DNA from: Bacteroidota bacterium
GTDB taxonomy: Bacteria > Bacteroidota > Bacteroidia > J057 > JADKCL01
NCBI GenBank assembly: GCA_016718825.1
Contig: JADKCL010000001.1
Coordinates: 152,574-216,573, forward strand
Reading direction: 5' to 3'
Length of the DNA: 64,000 bases
Shown: piece after piece, positions 29,511 through 48,198 of the stretch
How the letters are laid out: each line of letters starts with the position of its first letter
Numbering within the stretch: position 1 is the stretch's first letter
Translations under genes and position numbers: made by a program
The notes under the pieces: model-generated
The model's input: the letters and a program-made list of their open reading frames with translations, nothing else
The model's database searches: none
What the model was told of the DNA's origin: nothing

Positions 29511-29559
29511 AGTTTGTAAGAATTTGTGGGGATTCAAATTTGCCTGCAAATACACAACT

Positions 29560-30480
29560 ATGAAAAAAGCACTACTCATTCTCCTTTTGGCCGTTGGCAA
29601 CTTGGTATTCGCTCAAAACCCAATCATCTTCATGCCTGATGCCGGCCTCAACGATGGCTCGGACGAAGGTGGACTTAATGGTGGTAAGGAAACCTACGTC
29701 TTCGATGGCGATCCGAATACCAACAATGGTGCAGTGAATGCCTTTTATAGTTTGCCAATCAGCACCTGCAATAACACAAACTATTTGGGAATGATCCAAT
29801 TTGACCTCACGACCTTGCCAGCCGTTGTGGATTCTGTATTTTTAGGTGGATGGACTTGGGATCAAAATGTGATTTGCTACTCCAATTGCGACAACAATTG
29901 GGAGTTTTGGTATGTCGGGGCAGCATGGGATGAAATGGCCGTGACGTGGGGGACTGCGCCATTGCTTGATTCTGGATTTGCCGGACCTTTTAACGTGACC
30001 TTTCCTGATGTCGCCCGCGAACGGAAATTTGATATCACCCCCGCCTACAGGAATTGGAAATCAGGCAATGTCCCCAACTACGGGCTTGCCATCAAGCCCA
30101 TCGATGGGTTCTGCAACAATGCCTGTGTCATCCTCGGGATGCTTTCTTCGGATGATACCACGTTTGCTGGCACGCATCGTCCTTACTTGGAGATTTATTC
30201 AGGTGGCGTCGGGGTAGCAGAGGCACAACAAATCAAAACGAGATTTTTCCCCAATCCTGCACATAACGCTGCTGTGATCGAGTTTCAATCTACGTTCGTT
30301 GGACCAGTGGAATTGCATGTTTTGGACTATACAGGTCGCACAGTAAGCACACAAACCGAAACCATGGATATGGGATTGCAACGCATGAGGATTGACTTGG
30401 AAAAATTGGCAAACGGAATGTACACCTATCGCCTCACTACTCCATCCGGAAACAGTTCGGGAATGTTCGTGAGGCAGTGA
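29560..30480 (+). CDS. secreted protein with a T9SS type A CTD; the N-terminal domain is possibly DNRLRE/CBM96-like
   Basis: The ATG at 29560 gives the signal peptide MKKALLILLLAVGNLVFAQ. The C-terminal FFPNPAHNAAVIEFQS...LANGMYTYRLTTPSGNSSGMFVRQ is a Por secretion tail. The N-terminal domain assignment (FDITPAYRNWKSGNVPNYGLAIKP) is a weak recollection. Confidence 0.7.
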   Translation: MKKALLILLLAVGNLVFAQNPIIFMPDAGLNDGSDEGGLNGGKETYVFDGDPNTNNGAVNAFYSLPISTCNNTNYLGMIQFDLTTLPAVVDSVFLGGWTWDQNVICYSNCDNNWEFWYVGAAWDEMAVTWGTAPLLDSGFAGPFNVTFPDVARERKFDITPAYRNWKSGNVPNYGLAIKPIDGFCNNACVILGMLSSDDTTFAGTHRPYLEIYSGGVGVAEAQQIKTRFFPNPAHNAAVIEFQSTFVGPVELHVLDYTGRTVSTQTETMDMGLQRMRIDLEKLANGMYTYRLTTPSGNSSGMFVRQ

Positions 30481-35178: not shown

Positions 35179-35760
35179 TCAAGCGTTATTCCCGAGTTTC
35201 ACGCGGCGGTAAATGTCAGCCAGCGGAAGACTCAGCTTGAGGCTTTTTATTTCCAACACGTCTTCCAATCCACTATAGCTACGAAGTTGCCAAATACCGT
35301 CGTGAGCTTTTTGGAAGACATCAATTTGGTATTCGTCTTGGGCGATGAGAATGTATTCCGTTAGTGATGGTATTTGCTTGTACCGGTGGAATTTTTTGCC
35401 ACGGTCAAAGGATTCGCTCCATTCTGCAAGAACTTCGACGACTACCGTCGGATTTGTATAGGCATATTGATTGTCCACCACGTTGGGTTTGCCTTTGCAA
35501 ATAGATATTTCAGGATAGAAATAGCACCTTGGCTGATCGATACGAATTTTGAAGGAACTGGTAAAAACAAACCATTCCTCATGTTCAACGCCATCGGCAA
35601 TGGAACACATGCAATCTACTGTGATGCCGTTTTGATCAATGGAATGGCTTGTCATGGGCAGGATCTTGCCATCCAAATACTCATTTTTGTACTCTGCAAG
35701 CAATTCCAATGCGAGATATTCCTCTGGTGTGACGAATCGGTTTGGTATTTGAATTTCCAT
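35179..35760 (-). CDS. Uma2-family (DUF820) restriction-endonuclease-fold protein
   Basis: 193 aa with N-terminal TPEEYLALE...YEY.DGKI, a central D...E.K-like core (YPEISICKG...VVVEVLAEWSESFDRGKKFHRYKQIPSLTEY) and a typical Uma2 layout. Confidence 0.75.
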   Translation of the reverse strand: MEIQIPNRFVTPEEYLALELLAEYKNEYLDGKILPMTSHSIDQNGITVDCMCSIADGVEHEEWFVFTSSFKIRIDQPRCYFYPEISICKGKPNVVDNQYAYTNPTVVVEVLAEWSESFDRGKKFHRYKQIPSLTEYILIAQDEYQIDVFQKAHDGIWQLRSYSGLEDVLEIKSLKLSLPLADIYRRVKLGNNA

Positions 35761-35804: not shown

Positions 35805-36932
35805 TCAAAAACCATCCTTCCACTTACGAGCGATTTGCCTTGCGGTTTCGAGCATGGCGGGATCCCAATTTACCGCACTCCATTCGCCTGATGCAAGTGC
35901 CGAACTTTGAATCTTTGCCTTGACTTCTTCAAAATTGGCGCTGTTTTCGAGAATGTCGGAAAGCAGGAGTTGTTCGAAATGCAGCGTTTCATCCTCTAGC
36001 GGATGGCTTTGAAACTCAATTTTGGGCGGCAAAAAGTTTTGCAGGAGCGTGAACGAAGTCCGTTTGGCGGATTCGAGCTGCACCAAATCCCGCATTCGAA
36101 GGAAGTCGGCCTGATACTGCGATTGGCTTTCCGCATCGGCCAAGGCATGGCTCATTTGCTCCAAAACCACAAATTTGAGGTTCGGACATTGGCCCATTGT
36201 GGTAGCCAGCAACTCGAACACGCGTTCGGGTACGCCCGCGTCGTGCGTATCGCGCCTGACCCCAGGTTGCGGGCGAAAAGGCGAAGGTTCCCAACTTCCG
36301 CCGGAAATGTGAATTTCCCTGACGCGTGCCAGTGGAATTCCAGCCAGCAATTCTGCTGAGTCCAACCCAAAATTATGCAGCTGACAATACAGGTTGTGAA
36401 GGTCGAGGATGAGGAAACCATTCGCGGGCGCGAGCAAGGCCTCCAAAAATTCACCATGAATACGTGCAGAATGCGCATCTGTGGCAAATGCAAGGTTTTC
36501 CAGCCCCACGGGGCAACCGCAGGCGTCGGCAATCCGCAAAAGCCTATCCTGCCCAAGGGCAAGCGTTCGCTTGGAATAAGGCACGGACAAGGGTGCGCCC
36601 TTGTGAAAGTCGGCTCCCGTGAAAAACCCGAAATGTTCGCTGATGTGGTCAAATCGGAAGCGGGTGGTCAGGGATTTCAATTCCGCCAACCAAGCCGCTT
36701 GCTCGGGTAGCCATTTTCCTGAAAACATCGAAAAAAACACCCCATGCCCGACGAGCCGACCGGCATTGCCGTAACTTTTGAGCAGTTCTTCAAACCATTC
36801 CGGGATGTCGGGTCGATTGTGCAGCGTGTCAAATGACCATTCCATACCTTCGACGGCCTCCGCCGCAAACAGGGGTAATGCTGCCTGAATCAGGTTGGAA
36901 TCGACATTGAAGGAGAGGGAGGCGTGGATCAT
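35805..36932 (-). CDS. DUF692 multinuclear non-heme iron oxidase (MNIO; MbnB/TglH/ChrH family) RiPP-modifying enzyme with a ~85-aa C-terminal extension
   Basis: TIM-barrel motif series GHGVFF, DHISEHFGF, GLENLAF, LDLHNLY, EIHISGG, RRDTHD, VVLEQ. I prefer the ATG at 36932, 23 nt after the upstream precursor's stop, over the alternative start at 36980. An uncharacterised tail follows the barrel. Confidence 0.8.
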   Translation of the reverse strand: MIHASLSFNVDSNLIQAALPLFAAEAVEGMEWSFDTLHNRPDIPEWFEELLKSYGNAGRLVGHGVFFSMFSGKWLPEQAAWLAELKSLTTRFRFDHISEHFGFFTGADFHKGAPLSVPYSKRTLALGQDRLLRIADACGCPVGLENLAFATDAHSARIHGEFLEALLAPANGFLILDLHNLYCQLHNFGLDSAELLAGIPLARVREIHISGGSWEPSPFRPQPGVRRDTHDAGVPERVFELLATTMGQCPNLKFVVLEQMSHALADAESQSQYQADFLRMRDLVQLESAKRTSFTLLQNFLPPKIEFQSHPLEDETLHFEQLLLSDILENSANFEEVKAKIQSSALASGEWSAVNWDPAMLETARQIARKWKDGF

Positions 36933-36955
36933 CTTGGGTATTGCCACGTGTAAAC

Positions 36956-37123
36956 TCAGCCCCGACCGCAAGCCGGACAATTGTCGGCGTCTACGCGAAG
37001 GGGTTCATGCTGATCAACCTTCGTTTTGGTGTCTGATTGCGCCTTTTTGGTGTTGCAGGCAGTGCCCAAACCGATGGTCGCGGTGATCAGCATAGCTTGG
37101 AGGAGGGTGGTGGAGATTTTCAT
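36956..37123 (-). CDS. RiPP precursor peptide A2 (55 aa) with a lipoprotein-type signal peptide and C-terminal CPACGRG
   Basis: Manual translation, below the ORF-track cutoff: MKISTTLLQAMLITATIGLGTACNTKKAQSDTKTKVDQHEPLRVDADNCPACGRG*. It is a paralog of A1 in both the signal peptide and the C-terminal core. Confidence 0.65.
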   Translation of the reverse strand: MKISTTLLQAMLITATIGLGTACNTKKAQSDTKTKVDQHEPLRVDADNCPACGRG

Positions 37124-37228
37124 CGTCAATTCTTTTTAAACATTCGGATGACTTTTTGGTGCGGGAAACCAACCGATTCCATAAAGATACTGAAGAAGAA
37201 AATTCCACGAACAGCGGCTTGCGGGGGT

Positions 37229-37447
37229 TCAGCCCATGCCGCATGCCGGGCAAGGGTCGCCGCCGTTGCGCGGACTTGGCGAAAAAAGGTCTTTGACCTT
37301 GTCAATGATGCTTTCGTTTTGGGCAGGCCCAGTTTGGGAATTTTCTTCCTCAACATTTTGAGGTTTGACTGTGCGGCAGCTTGTCGCGGTGACGCCCACT
37401 GTGGCAGCAATGAGCATGGCTTTCAAAAGGGTGGATGGAACTTTCAT
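37229..37447 (-). CDS. RiPP precursor peptide A1 (72 aa) with a lipoprotein-type signal peptide and C-terminal CPACGMG
   Basis: ORF track: MKVPSTLLKAMLIAATVGVTATSCRTVKPQ...PRNGGDPCPACGMG*. From memory, CPACGMG is the conserved C-terminal core of the ChrA precursors acted on by the DUF692 enzyme ChrH. Confidence 0.7.
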   Translation of the reverse strand: MKVPSTLLKAMLIAATVGVTATSCRTVKPQNVEEENSQTGPAQNESIIDKVKDLFSPSPRNGGDPCPACGMG

Positions 37448-37567: not shown

Positions 37568-38044
37568 CTATTCCGCGACGGTGATCTCCAGCACATTCGA
37601 ATCGGGCAAACCATTCATCGACGTTTTGCCCTTGAATTGAATGCGGTATGTGCCAGATTGACGAATGGGGTAGGCATCCAACAAGTTGAATTCGGCAACA
37701 ATGGATCCTTGTGGCGCTACATGAACAAATGCAGAAGGTCTGGGCTTCCCGCGTTTGACCATCGCACCCGCATAAGGGATTTTGTTGCCTATGGCGTCGG
37801 TTACGTCCAAAAAATTGCCTTTGAAGCCCTCCAAGGGGGTCATGTAACGGCAAAACCGGGCTGCCTTTCCTTCGTTGTTGGTAACCGAGAAGGTAAGCGT
37901 GATGCTTTCGCCAATCGGAAAATGAACACCGTTGGAGGTGAGCTGGGTCTGCAATTCGGTTGCAGGGTTTTGGGCAGCAGCATCCATGTTGACCATCAAG
38001 GCAAAGAAAAGAAAAAGCAGCGGATGGAGGAAGGTGAAGCGCAT
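37568..38044 (-). CDS. secreted stand-alone domain resembling the propeptide/inhibitor domain of M35 (aspzincin, AsaP1-type) peptidases
   Basis: The ATG at 38044 gives the signal MRFTFLHPLLFLFFALMVNMDAAAQ. ITLTFSVTNNEGKAARFCRYMTPLEG..FLDVTD..GNKIPYAGAMVKRGKPRPSAFVHVAPQGS...NLLDAYPIRQSGTYRIQF follows the pattern I recall for the AsaP1 propeptide (LTLTNTG.KPV..LKW..P......F.V..DG..V.Y.G...KR..P...DY..L..G.S). No HExxH catalytic domain follows. Confidence 0.5.
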   Translation of the reverse strand: MRFTFLHPLLFLFFALMVNMDAAAQNPATELQTQLTSNGVHFPIGESITLTFSVTNNEGKAARFCRYMTPLEGFKGNFLDVTDAIGNKIPYAGAMVKRGKPRPSAFVHVAPQGSIVAEFNLLDAYPIRQSGTYRIQFKGKTSMNGLPDSNVLEITVAE

Positions 38045-38272
38045 AAATGGGGAAATTTGGGTTTTGGTAGCTACTAGAGCCGACTTCCCGACCACGCATG
38101 GATCAAAGATATTGAAAGTTGGGGTTTGGGACGAAGGCACAACAATTCCATCCTCTAGCAAAATTTACCAATCTCCCTTTATTTTCTGCCGATTACCAAA
38201 ATCCAGTTGAATCAATTCAAGCGGGCACATTATTTTCGCAGCGTCTAAATCACTGTCACCTTCTATCTATCA

Positions 38273-39466
38273 ATGGGATCATTCACCTCACCCGAAAAAC
38301 AGCCGTTGCAGCGGAAGCCGGCAACACAAGAAACCCCAGCCCTCGGAAAATCTGCCCAGCCACCTGCCTTTCAATTGACTGCTGAAGCCGATTCGCAGAA
38401 GCCCGCCCAGTTGCAGGAGGCTACCGCAGCCAAGGATTCCACAGCCGAGGTTCAGCAAGAAGCCCCTCAATTGGCCGAAACCGCTGCTCCCGAACCTGAA
38501 AAGGAGCTTTCGGAAGCCGATCGCTTACGCGGTGCCGTTGCAGGTAAAGCTACGGAGTGGAACGGCAAAGAATTCATGACCCAACAAGAAATCGAAGATG
38601 TCAGGGTCAGTTCCGGCCTCAAGAACTACACCACTTGCTTGGAGTTTGCGGGCAAAATGATGCGCGACGCCGACAAGGAAGTTTACGGCAAGGACTATAA
38701 AATGGCGACGGCAACGTCGCAGATGTTTACCCAAACCAAGGCAGATTGGGAAAAGGCCGTTGGTGCGCGCATTCAAGCCGATGGCTTTGACAAGTCAGTG
38801 GCTTTGTTTGAAAAGGCAATTGTGAGGGTGGAGGCACAAAAGGCCACGGTTGTTGCGGAAATCACGAAACTCCGTGAGCCTCAAAAAGAAGGCGAAAAGG
38901 AGTTGGCCTACAAACAGCGTAATCTTCGCGCCGCAGCACTTGAAAAACATACCGTTCCAGCCCTTGATTCGGTCTTGCGATTGTTGACTTCGCAGCGTGA
39001 CAAATGGAAGGCGAGGTCTGAAAAAAGTGATGCCAAGGCTGAGGAAATTGATGCCGGCAATTCTGCGATGATCAAGGCGGAGGATGGTATGAAAAATGGC
39101 CGACCCAAGTCCGGCGAATTTATCATCCTCGCGCAAGCCCCCGGTGGGGCGAAGTATGGTGTGAAAAAGGAAACGCAGGTACAGCTTGCAGGCGGCGCTT
39201 TCAAACATATTGCTGTCTTCATGGAAGTGCTCAAGCAAGACGACGGCAGCGGATTTGAGCTTTGGCGCACCATCGACGGTGGCGGCACCAATGGAAAAGA
39301 AACCTTGTTGCGTGTGCGCTTGGCCGACCGTATGATTTTCCCTGGACAAGAAGGCGCAAAAATGCCCGATGTTGGTTCCGCCTCCGGCTCACAACTCGCA
39401 GGATGGATGAACATGGATGAGATTGTGAACAAGCGCGACGCGAAATTGGCGGCTGGGAAGAAGTAA
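38273..39466 (+). CDS. hypothetical effector-like protein B: disordered N-terminal leader and a candidate papain-like Cys/His core split by a coiled-coil insert
   Basis: 397 aa with no signal peptide or CTD. The leader is MGSFTSPEKQPLQRKPATQETPALGKSAQPPAFQL. The candidate catalytic strings are KNYTTCLEFAGKMM and SGEFIILAQ...GGAFKHIAVFMEV...WRTIDGG. The function is inferred. Confidence 0.6.
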   Translation: MGSFTSPEKQPLQRKPATQETPALGKSAQPPAFQLTAEADSQKPAQLQEATAAKDSTAEVQQEAPQLAETAAPEPEKELSEADRLRGAVAGKATEWNGKEFMTQQEIEDVRVSSGLKNYTTCLEFAGKMMRDADKEVYGKDYKMATATSQMFTQTKADWEKAVGARIQADGFDKSVALFEKAIVRVEAQKATVVAEITKLREPQKEGEKELAYKQRNLRAAALEKHTVPALDSVLRLLTSQRDKWKARSEKSDAKAEEIDAGNSAMIKAEDGMKNGRPKSGEFIILAQAPGGAKYGVKKETQVQLAGGAFKHIAVFMEVLKQDDGSGFELWRTIDGGGTNGKETLLRVRLADRMIFPGQEGAKMPDVGSASGSQLAGWMNMDEIVNKRDAKLAAGKK

Positions 39467-44298: not shown

Positions 44299-47200
44299 TT
44301 GAAGTTTCGAATCGAGCAAGATCGGAATAGAATGCTTAATCGTCTGAATTTTATGCGGGAAGTCTACGAACTCTCACCCTGTTCGGTATTCTACAATCCA
44401 GACCTTGTGCCAAAGCAAGGGAGTCGTGCATTGTCGGCACGCGTGAAGCCTTGGCTGTTGATGGTTTTGGTATGTTGTCTTGCCGGGTGGGCACAGGCCC
44501 AGGAAATTTGCAACAATGGAATTGATGACGACAACGACGGCTACGTCGACTGCTATGACATCGATTGCTCTGGGAATTTTGCATGTACATCACAGCTTTT
44601 TGGCGGCGCGGTGCCTGGCTGTCAGTACGTTCCGACGCCAGCTCCGTCATTTCAGATGAGCCTTTTGTGGGCTACCGACAGCATTGCCCAGCCATTGACC
44701 ACGCGTCGCACCCCGATTATCGGCGACATCGATATCGACGGTGTGCCCGAAGTGATCACAGGGACCGCTGCGATTGCAAGCGGCACCTACGTTTACAATG
44801 GCGCAAACGGAATCCTTGAACGTACCATTGCTTCTTCGCCCTTTGCGCTCAGTTACGGTGCACATGCAATCGGCGACATTGACAACGACGGATTTGGCGA
44901 AATCCTCATGGTTTCCCAAAACAGCTCAGGCAGGCAATTGCTTTGTTATGAGCACAATGGAAACTTGAAGTGGACATCTTCGACACAGGTTGGCTTCGGC
45001 GTTGCTGATGAAACCTGGACGCCGCTGATCGCAGATTTTGAGGAAGACGGCTTGCCGGAAATCTACATGGGCAACCAGATTTTTAATGGTGCGACTGGAG
45101 CTTTGATCGTTTCAGGAACCGGATCTGCAAGCCGCGGCGCCAATGCTGGTTCACCCAATGAACCCTTTTCTGTCGCTGCAGACGTCTTGCCAACCGGATT
45201 TTGTGCCGACTGCGCTGGACTGGAATTGGTTGCTGGCAATACCGTGTATGCCATCAACCTTCTCGCCGGCACGATGGTAGCCCAAAACGTGCCCAATGCA
45301 GGCATGTTTGACGGAATGACATCTTTGGCAGATATGGACCGTGATGGTGATGTCGATGCCGTTGTCGTAGGTCAGAATGGTCTGACGCGTGGTGCCGTTT
45401 ATATTTGGGATATTCAAACAGGTGTGGTAATCGCCTCACCTTTTCAAATCGACGGTGCTGCCAATGCATCGGGAATCACGAGCTCCGGCGGATTGGCCAC
45501 CATCGCCGACCTCGACAACAACGGATTTCCGGAGGTTTTGGTCGGCGGGCGCAATGTGCTCGTAGCACTGAACTTCAACGTTGGGTTGAATAACTTTTCC
45601 GAACGCTGGTCCTTGGCCTCTATTGACAATTCGGGTCGTCTGGGTTGTACTGTTTTTGACTTCGAAGGTGACGGTACCAAGGAAGTTGTCTATCGTGATG
45701 ATGCTGTGCTGCGCGTTTTGGCGGGTGCAAATGGCGCCGTCAGGTTCACGACGACCTGTCCTTCTTCCTCGCGGATGGAAACCCCGGTCGTCGTCGACGT
45801 CGACAACAACGGGCAGGCCAATATCGTTTGCCAATGCAACAACAGCGTCAAAGCCTATCAGCCATTGCTCAGTACTTGGGTGCCGGCACGTGGCATCTGG
45901 AACCAACGCAGCTATTTTGTGCTGAATGTGCGCGACAATCTCCGCATTCCGCGACAGCAGCAAGGGCAGGAACTGGGCTTTCCCGTCGGCGCTCCCGTCA
46001 ACTATCCTTTTAATGTGTTCATGAGTCAGACCACGCGTCTGGCCAACAATGGCGCCATTGTCTACCCTGCCGCCAATGATCAAATCTCCATCCTGAATCC
46101 GGTGGCCGACATCAACCTCGGCCCCTGTCAAGACGGCATCAATGACTCCATCGGTCTGCGATTGACGGTTCGCAACACCGGAAATGCCCCGATTCCGATC
46201 GGCACGCCGATCTCCTTTTACAATGGAAATCCCTACGCGATCGGAGCGACATTCCTCAGGTCCTACAACATGTTGCAAGCTGTACCCATCGGGGGAAGCC
46301 TTACGCTGCCGTTTGTGTACGTCGATGATCAGGGAGGCACGATGAATCTGCATTTTCAGATCAACGACCTCGGAACCAATCCGATTCCGATGACCGCGCC
46401 GGCAAATGCCCACCTTGAATGCAACTACCTCAACAACATCGGCAACTTGCAAGTGACAAGCTGCGGCAATTTGCCCCCTGCGGTGGATACATTCGGCCTG
46501 CAAACGGATACGATTTTGTTTACCTCCTTTGAAGACACCCCGGCGCAGCTTTGTATTTCAGCGACCGATCCGCAGTCCGATGCCCACGATGTGACAGGCT
46601 TGATCGGAAGTATTGCCTTGGGTTCCGCCACCGGACTAAATGATGGCGATAGTTGTATCACCCTCACCCCATTGCCAAGCTCCACCGGCCAATCGACATT
46701 TTCGCTGATTATTTGCGACAATGGCAACGTTCCGCTTTGCGATACGGTGTTTGTGATTTGGACGCTTGCACCTTTGAATGACCGTCCCGTTGCACTGGAT
46801 GATGCGATCACCACCAACGAAGACACCCCTGTCTCCATTCCGCTCTTGGGAAATGACTTTGACGCTGAAAACGATCCGCTTGCGGTGACCTTGATCGGCG
46901 GGCCTTTGCATGGAACGGCGGCCATGAACTTGAACAATTTGGATTATACGCCTGGCTTCAACTACGTCGGGTTTGATACCATCGTTTACAGGGTTTGTGA
47001 CAATGCTTTGCCCGTCGGCTGCGACACGGCAACCATCATCATTACCATTCTCCCCATCAACGACAATCCGCTTGCTGTTGATGATTCGATCACGCTGCCC
47101 AACGATACGACGCAGGTCAATGTGCCGATCATTGTCAACGATAGCGATCCCGAATCAGGCGTGTTGTCGATCACCATCGGCTGCCCACCGGCCCATGGCA

Positions 47201-48198
47201 CCGCCACGGTCAATACCAACACCCTCCAAATTGTGTATGTCCCCGATCCGACCTACATCGGCTTGGACTCGCTCTGTTACATTCTCTGCGATGACGGAAA
47301 CCCTGTGCTTTGCGACACCGCTTATGTGTATTTCAACATCTTCAATGGCAATGAACCGCCGTTGGCAGTGGATGACATGGACACCACGCTCTTGCAAGAC
47401 ACCGTGTTGATCTCGATCATACCCAACGACAGCGATCCCAACGGCGATGCCTTTTCTACGACCGCATTGATTTGCGGACCGATGAATGGAACCGTCACCT
47501 TGGACACGCTGCTTGGTATCCTGACCTACGTGCCCAATGTCGGCTACCTTGGACCCGATTCGATTTGTTATGTCATTTGCGATGTTCCCGTCGGTGGCCC
47601 ATCCTATTGCGACACCGCTGTGGTTTACATCCAGGTGAATACCAGCAATATCCCGCCGGATGCGATCACGGATACACTCACGGTTGCATTTACGCTCACC
47701 GGCACACGTGACCTCCTCGCCAATGACAGCGATGCCAATGCGCTTGACAGCTTGTTTGTCACGATCCTTTTGCAGCCTTCCAATGGCACCGCCTTGCTCA
47801 ACAACGGTGTCATTACCTACACGCCCAATCCGACATTTTACGGACTCGATAGCCTCTGCTATCAGCTCTGTGACAACGGCATTCCGGTGATGTGTGACAC
47901 GGCCTGTGCCTACTTCACGGTCCTTCCTCCGGTCGATATCATTGTCCCCAATGGATTTTCGCCGAATGGGGATGGGGCCAATGACTTCTTGGTCATCGAT
48001 GCCGTGCAGTTGTATCCCGACAATACCTTTCAGGTATTCACGCGCTGGGGAACCACGGTGTTTGAGGCAAATGGCTATAACAATGAATGGGACGGCACTT
48101 ACAAGGGGAACGCAGTACCCGATGGCACCTATTTTTACAGGCTCGATCCGGGGGATGGGTCTGACGTAATTACTGGTTTTGTATTGCTGTACAGATAA
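44299..48198 (+). CDS. giant adhesin-like protein: Cys/Asp metal-binding motif, FG-GAP/VCBS propeller, tandem Ig/cadherin-like repeats, and a T9SS type B CTD (gliding-associated C-terminal domain)
   Basis: The signal-like VKPWLLMVLVCCLAGWAQAQ suggests the true start may be the GTG at 44443. CNNGIDDDNDGYVDCYDIDC and FG-GAP motifs (DIDIDGVPE, DIDNDGFGE, DMDRDGDVD, DLDNNGFPE) are followed by at least 6 repeats of NDxPxAxDDxxT...V.ND.D...D. The C-terminus IVPNGFSPNGDGANDFLVID...FTRWGTTVFE...WDGTYKGNAVPDGTYFY...GFVLLYR is the type B sorting domain. Confidence 0.85.
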   Translation: MKFRIEQDRNRMLNRLNFMREVYELSPCSVFYNPDLVPKQGSRALSARVKPWLLMVLVCCLAGWAQAQEICNNGIDDDNDGYVDCYDIDCSGNFACTSQLFGGAVPGCQYVPTPAPSFQMSLLWATDSIAQPLTTRRTPIIGDIDIDGVPEVITGTAAIASGTYVYNGANGILERTIASSPFALSYGAHAIGDIDNDGFGEILMVSQNSSGRQLLCYEHNGNLKWTSSTQVGFGVADETWTPLIADFEEDGLPEIYMGNQIFNGATGALIVSGTGSASRGANAGSPNEPFSVAADVLPTGFCADCAGLELVAGNTVYAINLLAGTMVAQNVPNAGMFDGMTSLADMDRDGDVDAVVVGQNGLTRGAVYIWDIQTGVVIASPFQIDGAANASGITSSGGLATIADLDNNGFPEVLVGGRNVLVALNFNVGLNNFSERWSLASIDNSGRLGCTVFDFEGDGTKEVVYRDDAVLRVLAGANGAVRFTTTCPSSSRMETPVVVDVDNNGQANIVCQCNNSVKAYQPLLSTWVPARGIWNQRSYFVLNVRDNLRIPRQQQGQELGFPVGAPVNYPFNVFMSQTTRLANNGAIVYPAANDQISILNPVADINLGPCQDGINDSIGLRLTVRNTGNAPIPIGTPISFYNGNPYAIGATFLRSYNMLQAVPIGGSLTLPFVYVDDQGGTMNLHFQINDLGTNPIPMTAPANAHLECNYLNNIGNLQVTSCGNLPPAVDTFGLQTDTILFTSFEDTPAQLCISATDPQSDAHDVTGLIGSIALGSATGLNDGDSCITLTPLPSSTGQSTFSLIICDNGNVPLCDTVFVIWTLAPLNDRPVALDDAITTNEDTPVSIPLLGNDFDAENDPLAVTLIGGPLHGTAAMNLNNLDYTPGFNYVGFDTIVYRVCDNALPVGCDTATIIITILPINDNPLAVDDSITLPNDTTQVNVPIIVNDSDPESGVLSITIGCPPAHGTATVNTNTLQIVYVPDPTYIGLDSLCYILCDDGNPVLCDTAYVYFNIFNGNEPPLAVDDMDTTLLQDTVLISIIPNDSDPNGDAFSTTALICGPMNGTVTLDTLLGILTYVPNVGYLGPDSICYVICDVPVGGPSYCDTAVVYIQVNTSNIPPDAITDTLTVAFTLTGTRDLLANDSDANALDSLFVTILLQPSNGTALLNNGVITYTPNPTFYGLDSLCYQLCDNGIPVMCDTACAYFTVLPPVDIIVPNGFSPNGDGANDFLVIDAVQLYPDNTFQVFTRWGTTVFEANGYNNEWDGTYKGNAVPDGTYFYRLDPGDGSDVITGFVLLYR

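Follow-up and report, generated by a model that had tools for sequence, protein, structure and literature searches.

On the minus strand of the 64-kb stretch of DNA analysed here (the window), two short precursor genes, A1 and A2, are followed by the gene of an MNIO enzyme, all within 1.6 kb (Table 1). The stop codon of A2 and the start of MNIO are 23 nt apart. A1 ends in GGDPCPACGMG-stop, while A2 reads MKISTTLLQAMLITATIGLGTAC...DADNCPACGRG-stop. Re-reading of the sequence confirmed that the locus is real and well read: the coordinates, lengths, spacers and C-terminal ends given for the three genes in an earlier first-pass annotation are all reproduced. A 391-aa version of MNIO with a TTG start, overlapping A2, is an artefact of the ORF finder; the homologues begin at the ATG. 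Across all six frames, the window contains the pattern C-x-x-C-G-x-G-stop twice, each time at this locus. This is far above chance, as 0.01 occurrences are expected per mononucleotide shuffle of the window.

Table 1. Features of the A1-A2-MNIO locus, with positions counted in the window.
Feature	Position	Strand	Remarks
A1 precursor, DybA-type	37229..37447	-	72 aa: signal peptide, lipobox, spacer region, C-terminal CPACGMG
A1 signal peptide MKVPSTLLKAMLIAATVGVTATS and lipobox Cys24	37376..37447	-	Cys24 codon 37378..37376; PS51257-like rule passed
A1 core CPACGMG, predicted MNIO modification site	37232..37252	-	Motif is the modification site in ChrA/DybA
A1-A2 spacer	37124..37228	-	105 nt
A2 precursor, DybA-type	36956..37123	-	55 aa, ends CPACGRG
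A2 lipobox Cys23	37057..37055	-	Lipobox rule passed
A2 core CPACGRG	36979..36959	-	
MNIO, ChrH/DybH subfamily	35805..36932	-	375 aa, starts MIHASLSF, no signal peptide

The enzyme matches PF05114 with 105.8 bits (cut-off 25, E=2.9e-30, residues 50-258), the profile check that the first-pass annotation had proposed. The NCBIfam model NF050165 (MNIO_ChrH) covers it from end to end, pairing residues 6-372 with profile positions 6-361 of 363, at a score of 338 bits. Because this score falls below the equivalog cut-off of 600 bits, MNIO is not an orthologue of the Chryseobacterium ChrH, a placement that rests on the score calibration of NCBIfam. The Dyadobacter and Hymenobacter enzymes also remain under this cut-off (387-398 bits). 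The BufB and HvfB models reach only 76-88 bits on MNIO. Over the full length, the identity is 52-58% to enzymes from Dyadobacter, Hymenobacter, Fibrella, Spirosoma, Fluviicola and Saprospiraceae (53-55% for the Dyadobacter homologues). MNIO lies in a separate subclade, about 55% identical to any experimentally tested enzyme; its nearest genome relatives among the matches listed are the loci L001-L003, with 65-69% identity. For comparison, DybH and ChrH share only 40% identity (PMC13056109).

The full motif series read earlier is present: GHG (62-64), SEH (98-100), ENL (145-147), DLHN (177-180), EIHISGG (206-212) and DTHD (228-231). Across 12 homologues, down to 54% identity, the motif residues are invariant with the exception of S98 and I207, the latter being nearly invariant. 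In TglH, iron is bound by H71, H107, E151, D184, N187, H216, D229, H231 and E258 (PMC10880893). Seven of these (E151, D184, N187, H216, D229, H231 and E258) align to E145, D177, N180, H208, D228, H230 and E258 of MNIO, while H63 of GHG and H100 of SEH were assigned as ligands from the motifs and an alignment to 3BWW. All nine ligand positions are kept and are invariant across the 12 homologues. In the AF2 model (pLDDT 87.4, pTM 0.89), a TIM barrel (~1-262) is followed by a long helix (267-290), a linker (291-314) and a C-terminal helical bundle (315-372; nt 35990..35808) with helices at 315-330, 334-342, 345-348 and 358-372. A TIM barrel with a linker-attached C-terminal helical bundle of ~7.8 kDa is found throughout the ChrH family (PMC13056109). 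The best PDB matches in Foldseek are TglH (8hci/8hi7), MbnB (7tcr/7fc0/7dz9) and 3bww, with E=3e-13 to 9e-9. A sequence search of the PDB matched only TglH and 3BWW, and returned no solved structure of ChrH or DybH.

Both precursors pass the 40-bit cut-off of NF050125 (ChrA_rel_RiPP, 'chryseobasin-related MNIO class RiPP peptide'), A1 with 40.4 and A2 with 45.2 bits, the two E-values being 1e-11 and 4e-10. These passes are marginal, as peptides from Dyadobacter and Hymenobacter reach 66-77 bits. On the ChrA model NF050124 (cut-off 50 bits) A1 fails with 16.3 bits, and no hit to this model was reported for A2. Together with the end-to-end NF050165 match, the NF050125 hits bear out the first reading of a chryseobasin-like MNIO RiPP locus. 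The signal peptides of A1 and A2 had been called near-identical; they are indeed similar, but only about 12-14 of 24 residues are identical. A1 carries a subclade-specific (I/L)xxK(V/I)xxLF motif ahead of its core, and relatives with 92% and 85% enzyme identity have A1 orthologues of 70 aa.

The A1-A2-MNIO cassette is surrounded by unrelated housekeeping genes. As the first-pass annotation had it, no partner or protease gene is present among the neighbouring ORFs scanned, nor is a transporter gene, and these ORFs hold no DUF1772 or M42 peptidase domain. A secreted-looking upstream ORF of 197 aa (37568..38161) was rejected as part of the cluster: L085 and all of the best 80 genome loci lack it, and its L081 counterpart shares only 56% identity with it. 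Uma2 was treated as local synteny; in close relatives it is found next to the cassette, and further hits fell in L002 and L046. Between A1 and A2, a three-way alignment shows that a block (37205..37175) is kept in close relatives. It contains TATCTTTA, which resembles the Bacteroidota -7 promoter box and may act as a promoter. A terminator or attenuator after A1 was considered and rejected, as 37235..37185 folds no better than shuffled sequences do (z=-0.13). The stretches after A2 and after MNIO yield no terminator-like fold either, and the consensus scan of the minus strand found no terminator. A sigma-70 scan returned 3 sites against 2.8 expected, with a consensus that is unsuited to Bacteroidota.

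The closest characterised systems are DybA/DybH from Dyadobacter crusticola, ChsAH and HymAH, which represent a non-Chryseobacterium clade of Bacteroidota and were studied by Chen et al., PNAS 2026; the products are termed 'DAG-RiPPs' (PMC13056109). DybA-type precursors are short, carry a lipobox Cys and end in CPxCGxG, and their clusters often consist of just a precursor and an MNIO (PMC13056109). DybH, ChsH and HymH act without a partner and generate an unmethylated -4 Da product at CPxCGxG, with a macrocycle and a hydantoin, the macrocycle having been likened to the pyrophosphate-binding B ring of lantibiotics (PMC13056109). The locus described here shares with DybA/DybH the MK(I/L/V)S..LL..A signal, the lipobox Cys and the C-terminal CPxCGxG, the precursor directly upstream of an MNIO of ~375 aa with a fused C-terminal helical bundle, the lack of partner, protease and transporter genes, and the phylum. 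It differs from the dyb cluster in having two paralogous precursors instead of one, an Arg for Met in the core of A2, a longer A1 with the additional motif, and an MNIO from a separate subclade. The earlier description as an uncharacterised branch therefore does not hold, since the products of DybH, ChsH and HymH and a triacylated lipo-DybA have been reported for this clade (PMC13056109).

Chryseobasin itself (ChrA/ChrH; Ayikpoe et al. 2023, PMC10214503) is made by an MNIO of the same subfamily, also with the helical bundle, and CPACGMG is the modification site in both ChrA and DybA (PMC10214503, PMC13056109). Macrocycle and hydantoin formation like that of chryseobasin is predicted here. ChrA, however, is longer, lacks the lipobox Cys and has an SPI signal, and the chr operon adds ChrI (DUF1772), ChrE and ChrP (M42 peptidase), none of which was found near this locus. 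TonB-dependent receptor and sigma/anti-sigma genes are a feature of methanobactin clusters. Their lack had been listed as a difference from chryseobasin; such genes are in fact absent from the published chr cluster as well, which comprises ChrA, H, I, E and P (PMC10214503). A need for ChrI, also assumed at first, is contradicted by the finding that ChrI is dispensable even for ChrH (PMC13056109).

The product of ChrH is S-methylated (+10 Da), whereas the DybA-type product is not (-4 Da). The first-pass annotation expected SAM-dependent S-methylation, and a ChrH-like enzyme working with the same genes and the same export route would indeed yield a chryseobasin-type product. The homology of MNIO to the ChrH model extends over the full length, and ArlH, a non-Chryseobacterium homologue from Myxococcota, yielded methylated and unmethylated product side by side (PMC13056109). 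Methylation differs within the family (ChrAH methylated, ArlAH a mixture), for reasons that, by their own account, the authors of the study do not understand (PMC13056109). All three tested non-Chryseobacterium homologues from Bacteroidota, however, gave the -4 Da product only (PMC13056109). Furthermore, MNIO scores far under the ChrH equivalog cut-off, as do the Dyadobacter enzymes, and A1 and A2 are of the DybA type and not of the ChrA type. S-methylation thus seems improbable, and an unmethylated DybA-type product is preferred.

As to the fate of the peptides, a PROSITE PS51257-like lipobox rule was applied: {DERK}6-[LIVMFWSTAG]2-[LIVMFYSTAGCQ]-[AGS]-C, with the Cys at 15-35 and a K/R in the first 7 residues. 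It is passed by A1 (Cys24) and A2 (Cys23), in line with the Sec/lipoprotein-type signals noticed earlier, and by 92 of the 100 related precursors among the matches listed. The residue at -3 is Ala in A1 and Gly in A2, where the classical box has Leu. This, and the use of SPI signals by ChrA and MelA1 of the same family (PMC13056109), would fit ordinary Sec/SPI signals or an unused Cys, giving soluble periplasmic or secreted peptides that carry no lipid anchor. Such a route is judged very unlikely: not only do both peptides satisfy the rule, with the Cys also found in those 92 related precursors, but a very similar box, A-T-A-C, is carried by the Dyadobacter precursors, which belong to the type shown to be triacylated (PMC13056109). 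In DybA the lipobox Cys, an invariant residue of the family, is the site of diacylglyceryl attachment, lipo-DybA expressed in E. coli is triacylated, and the peptides of this clade are triacylated via the lipoprotein pathway (PMC13056109). The early prediction of export and possible lipid anchoring agrees with this later result for DybA, and lipidation of A1 and A2 remains the preferred reading. A parallel is offered by the bufferins and oxazolins with lipoprotein signals (NedA/NedBC), which are likewise Cys-containing, MNIO-modified peptides with SPII signals, lipidated following modification in the cytoplasm (PMC13056109, PMC12452194). These differ in their MNIO clade, in requiring a DUF2063 partner and in their core motifs, and form a thiooxazole or an oxazolone-thioamide for copper binding.

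The gene arrangement is conserved beyond this locus. The genome scan sample consists of the best 80 loci, all of the DybH type. Among the matches listed, 79 of the 83 related loci contain at least one sORF ending in CxxCGxG, which adjoins the enzyme gene in the related loci inspected, as had been anticipated for DUF692 genes. CPACGMG is the commonest core (61/100 precursors among the matches listed). Two precursors had been regarded as a distinguishing feature of this locus; tandem precursors are, however, common in the clade, being present in 19 of 79 related loci among the matches listed. The main text of PMC13056109 makes no mention of multiple precursors per cluster.

The second core raises the question of whether A2 is a substrate at all. 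Arg takes the place of the Met that contributes its backbone nitrogen to the hydantoin, so that only A1 might be the true substrate, with A2 a decaying or non-processed paralogue. The cores assayed so far with any enzyme exclude G-R-G and G-K-G, GMG is by far the commonest ending, and G[RK]G ends account for only 6 of the 100 precursors, and are seen in 6 of the 79 loci, among the matches listed. The codon changes argue against decay. Compared with its counterpart in L081 (enzyme 92% identical), A2 shows 20 synonymous and 3 non-synonymous changes, and its GRG end is kept in L081-L085. The core codons of both precursors display synonymous differences only in comparison to close relatives, and the CPACGMG of A1 is separated from that of L081 and L085 by synonymous changes only. 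Both sORFs are kept in close relatives, where most changes are synonymous, and are under purifying selection, which for A2 is strong. In addition, GRG/GKG partners recur in L001, L003, L081 and L085 and, independently, in L040. The heterocycle is built from backbone atoms, and Leu at this position is accepted in HymA, which ends in CPGCGLG, so that the x positions tolerate variation (PMC13056109). A non-substrate A2 is therefore a doubtful proposition, and processing of both A1 and A2 is favoured.

Overall, the locus, which comes from an uncultured Bacteroidia lineage, most probably (roughly 85%) represents a minimal 'DAG-RiPP' cluster of the DybA/DybH type, with two precursor genes and one maturase. 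In the proposed pathway, A1 and A2 would be translated in the cytoplasm, where MNIO, itself lacking a signal peptide, would act partner-free with a multi-iron centre and O2, its own C-terminal helical bundle serving as the accessory domain. The C-terminal C-P-A-C-G-(M/R)-G is expected to undergo a four-electron oxidation that joins the two Cys-derived positions into a macrocycle and converts the last residues to a hydantoin (imidazolidinedione), leaving a thiohemiaminal with a free thiol. In sum, the mass would change by -4 Da, most likely with no methylation. The modified peptides would subsequently be exported by Sec. Lgt would then transfer diacylglycerol onto Cys24 (A1) or Cys23 (A2), after which LspA would cut off the signal peptide and Lnt would N-acylate the new N-terminus. 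The predicted products are two macrocyclic lipopeptides, 49 and 33 residues long, that are triacylated and anchored in the membrane. Because neither A1 nor A2 has an Asp at +2, they would be destined for the outer membrane by the E. coli rule, and possibly for vesicles.

A more speculative idea, which we hold to be rather unlikely, is that the GMG-core and G(R/K)G-core lipopeptides behind one maturase form a functional two-component system, beyond mere redundancy, that yields an Arg-substituted hydantoin congener. It draws on the recurrence of the GMG + G(R/K)G pairing in the subclade (this locus, L081-L085, L001 and L003) and its independent appearance in L040. If true, differently charged and differently sized lipid-anchored macrocycles would act jointly on one target or on two, and the Arg-substituted hydantoin congener would be one that is so far undescribed.

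Within the chryseobasin family, the locus falls into the DybA/DybH 'DAG-RiPP' branch, for which experimental characterisation came in 2025-2026. Since the family chemistry, the partner independence and the lipidation have been published, and annotation models already name the peptides, the locus raises no new question. The Arg-for-Met core is the only feature that is not covered in PMC13056109, and it is a minor one. Coming from an uncultured Bacteroidia lineage, the locus provides a clean minimal example of the lipoprotein-RiPP hybrids, a recently defined group, and contributes a natural Arg/Lys variant at the core position that is incorporated into the hydantoin. Such cores, together with the multi-precursor cassettes that are frequent in the clade, are useful for substrate-tolerance mapping and engineering.

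The locus consists of two small precursor peptide genes, A1 and A2, and an adjoining DUF692 enzyme gene (MNIO); these three constitute the functional unit, which is a further member of the recently characterised DybA/DybH kind. The first-pass annotation had recognised a real feature correctly, and its description of gene coordinates, peptide ends and enzyme position was borne out as written. A six-frame scan of the 64-kb window for C-x-x-C-G-x-G-stop gives two hits, those at A1/A2, against 0.01 per window from mononucleotide shuffles. A TTG start for the enzyme at 36980, overlapping A2, appeared in a mechanical ORF list; this extension is an artefact, because the homologues begin at ATG.

Features of the locus, its surroundings and related loci (window coordinates unless a related locus, L, is named)
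Feature	Position	Strand	Description
A1	37447..37229	-	72 aa, MKVPSTLLKAMLIAATVGVTATSC...GGDPCPACGMG-stop
A1 pre-core motif	37312..37283		A1 residues ~46-55, (I/L)xxK(V/I)xx(L/I)F
A1-A2 spacer		-	105 nt
Conserved spacer block	37175..37205	-	GAATTTTCTTCTTCAGTATCTTTATGGAATC
A2	37123..36956	-	55 aa, MKISTTLLQAMLITATIGLGTAC...DADNCPACGRG-stop
A2-MNIO gap		-	23 nt
MNIO	36932..35805	-	375 aa, N-terminus MIHASLSF
Uma2-family protein (PF05685)	35179..35760	-	flanks locus, downstream of cassette
197-aa ORF	37568..38161	-	120 nt upstream of A1; likely start MRFTFLHPLLFLFFALMVNMDAAAQ, signal-peptide-like
397-aa ORF	38273..39466	+	low-complexity Gln/Ala/Glu-rich N-terminal part; 92% identity in L081-L084
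Type IX secretion cargo adhesin	44299..48198	+	1299 aa, FG-GAP/Big_9/cadherin-like, CHU_C domain
Type IX secretion cargo CBM96 protein	29524..30480	+	Por_Secre_tail domain
A1-type motif precursors	L001 3773-3979; L002 3440-3646; L003 3766-3972
CPACGKG precursor	L003 5234-5491
CIACGRG and CPACGMG precursors	L040 3320-3538 and 3588-3806
Uma2 paralogues	L081 4348-4917 and 7173-7756; L001 2687-3166 and 5271-5756

The enzyme matches PF05114 (MbnB_TglH_ChrH; 105.8 bits, E=2.9e-30) and aligns end-to-end with NCBIfam NF050165 (MNIO_ChrH), residues 6-372 on profile positions 6-361 of 363. Its 338 bits (E=5e-101) fall below the 600-bit equivalog cut-off defining Chryseobacterium ChrH, as do the 387-398 bits of the Dyadobacter and Hymenobacter enzymes from the fetched loci, scored for calibration. 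The NCBIfam bufferin, HvfB and ApyH models give 39-88 bits. Judged by the full-length NF050165 alignment, the 100 residues beyond the MbnB/TglH length are typical of the family, and no foreign partner has been fused on. In an AlphaFold2 model from 12 homologues (pLDDT 87.4, pTM 0.89), an eight-stranded beta/alpha barrel extends to about residue 262 and is followed by a long helix (267-290), then by a poorly ordered linker that leads into a small helical bundle (315-372). Such a C-terminal bundle is found in all family members and is required when separately encoded (MelHc; PMC13056109). The top Foldseek PDB matches are TglH (8hci, 8hi7), MbnB (7tcr, 7fc0, 7dz9) and the DUF692 protein 3BWW. The enzyme is predicted to be cytoplasmic, because its N-terminus leads directly into barrel strand 1 of the model. 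TglH binds iron through H71, H107, E151, D184, N187, H216, D229, H231 and E258 (PMC10880893). By profile alignment, the last seven correspond directly to E145, D177, N180, H208, D228, H230 and E258, and the first two positions are filled by H63 (GHG) and H100 (SEH), assigned by motif. None of the nine varies across an alignment extending down to 54% identity.

Both precursors pass the 40-bit cut-off of NF050125 ('chryseobasin-related MNIO class RiPP peptide', NCBIfam), A2 with 45.2 and A1 with 40.4 bits, and such peptides are thus already named by current NCBI annotation models. Neither reaches the cut-off of the ChrA model NF050124 (A1, 16 of 50 bits; A2, no match). Both fit a lipobox rule modelled on PROSITE PS51257, with the Cys at position 24 in A1 (T-A-T-S-C) and 23 in A2 (L-G-T-A-C). 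By the E. coli rule, no inner-membrane retention signal is predicted, since the Cys is followed by Arg in A1 and by Asn in A2, not by Asp. The two signal peptides had been called near-identical, which was overstated: about half of their residues are in common. Between A2 and its counterpart in L081, a locus with a 92% identical enzyme, 23 codons differ, 20 of them synonymously; in the seven core codons of either gene, close relatives differ by synonymous changes only. A1 and A2 are both present, in the same order, in the relatives with 92% and 85% identical enzymes. With mostly synonymous change and a conserved order, both are real genes under purifying selection. A motif a few residues before the core (IIDKVKDLF, LSGKIHNLF, IVGKVNTLF or IFDRIHDIF, for example) is common to the A1-type precursors of the subclade and absent from Dyadobacter-type precursors; a role in recognition or as an amphipathic element is possible.

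A collection of 5.8 billion proteins holds more than 2,700 MNIO homologues at E<=1e-20. Metagenomes and a 'Bacteroidia bacterium' MAG supply the closest (97%, 92% and 85% identity). A second group follows at 65-69%, and a plateau at 52-58% includes Saprospiraceae, Fluviicola, Dyadobacter, Hymenobacter, Fibrella, Spirosoma, Taibaiella and Pontibacter. The best 80 genome loci and five metagenome/MAG loci were scanned for sORFs ending in C-x-x-C-G-x-G-stop, with three duplicate L081 copies set aside (denominator, 83 loci). At least one was found in 79 of 83, and in those loci inspected it adjoins the enzyme gene; the lipobox rule holds for 92 of 100 surveyed peptides. CPACGMG is the commonest core (61), followed by CPGCGMG (11), CPACGLG (6) and rarer others. 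Basic cores are CPACGRG (n=3; the window, L081 and L085, the last with the 85% identical enzyme), CPACGKG (n=2; L001 and L003, from the 65-69% group) and CIACGRG (n=1; L040). Two or three precursors occur in 19 of the 79 loci. Pairs of GMG and G(R/K)G cores recur in the subclade of the window and, independently, in L040, an unrelated Bacteroidota MAG with paired CIACGRG and CPACGMG precursors. The CPACGKG precursor of L003 lies downstream of the MNIO gene, not upstream, and two dissimilar precursors are regular in Fluviicola loci.

The A1-A2 spacer contains a block conserved across the window, L081 and L085, unlike the variable stretch directly past the A1 stop codon. Within it, TATCTTTA resembles the Bacteroidota -7 box TAnnTTTG, 59 nt upstream of the A2 start. 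Going by this sequence likeness, A2 and the MNIO gene may have an internal promoter in this block.

Further flanking genes encode a glyoxalase-fold protein, an NAD-dependent epimerase, a DegT aminotransferase, a phosphatidylserine decarboxylase, an ABC-F ATPase, a DUF5686 protein and the type IX secretion cargo adhesin; the flanking order is the same in relatives with the 92% identical enzyme. The type IX markers Por_Secre_tail and CHU_C support a Bacteroidota origin of the window. In close relatives, Uma2 paralogues lie on both sides of the cassette; the window retains the downstream copy only, equivalent to an indel of ~500 bp on the upstream side of A1. The flanking may be plain synteny or may mark a cassette in a variable spot. 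The 197-aa ORF has no match in Pfam or NCBIfam, is only 56% identical to the 139-aa gene that takes its place in L081 (flanking genes, 92-99%) and has no counterpart in L085. Its product seems to be a rapidly evolving, predicted secreted protein, and it is probably outside the cluster. The 397-aa ORF has no family match. The neighbouring genes scanned include none for a protease, a TonB-dependent receptor, a SusCD pair, a methyltransferase, DUF1772 or DUF2063.

The ChrH subfamily is divided into a Chryseobacterium cluster and an other-Bacteroidota cluster (Chen et al., PNAS 2026, PMC13056109; preprint November 2025). In the latter, the precursors, which are shorter, have a CPxCGxG C-terminus and an extra invariant Cys, that of the SPII lipobox, and the gene clusters often comprise only precursor and MNIO, without partner protein (PMC13056109). 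DybH, ChsH and HymH convert the motif partner-free to a -4 Da unmethylated product with a macrocycle, a hydantoin and a thiohemiaminal with free thiol; HymA ends in CPGCGLG, so the x positions tolerate change (PMC13056109). DybA with its native signal becomes a triacylated lipopeptide in E. coli, found in outer-membrane vesicles, and ChrI is dispensable even for ChrH (PMC13056109). Each testable feature of the window agrees with this description. The lipoprotein-type signal and the lack of partner and accessory genes, which had been taken as departures from chryseobasin, are all published defining DybA/DybH traits. Nor do the missing TonB receptor and sigma/anti-sigma genes set the locus apart, as the chr cluster, which consists of ChrA, H, I, E and P (PMC10214503), has none of them. 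The pair of paralogous precursors, one with a GMG and one with a GRG core, is real, and the main text of PMC13056109 does not discuss it; even so, multi-precursor cassettes are frequent in the clade.

Starting from the genes, fold, ligands, lipobox and conservation observed at this locus, the homologues suggest the chemistry, lipidation and localisation of the A1 and A2 products. MNIO would carry out a four-electron oxidation of both peptides at the C-terminal motif in the cytoplasm. Sec export would follow, and then processing by Lgt, LspA and Lnt, yielding two macrocyclic peptides, one of 49 and one of 33 residues, each anchored by lipid. The most novel interpretation, that the two lipopeptides with their different charges work together as a functional two-component system, is improbable. 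The remaining novelty is a small extension of the family: a naturally occurring basic residue at the position that contributes its backbone to the hydantoin.
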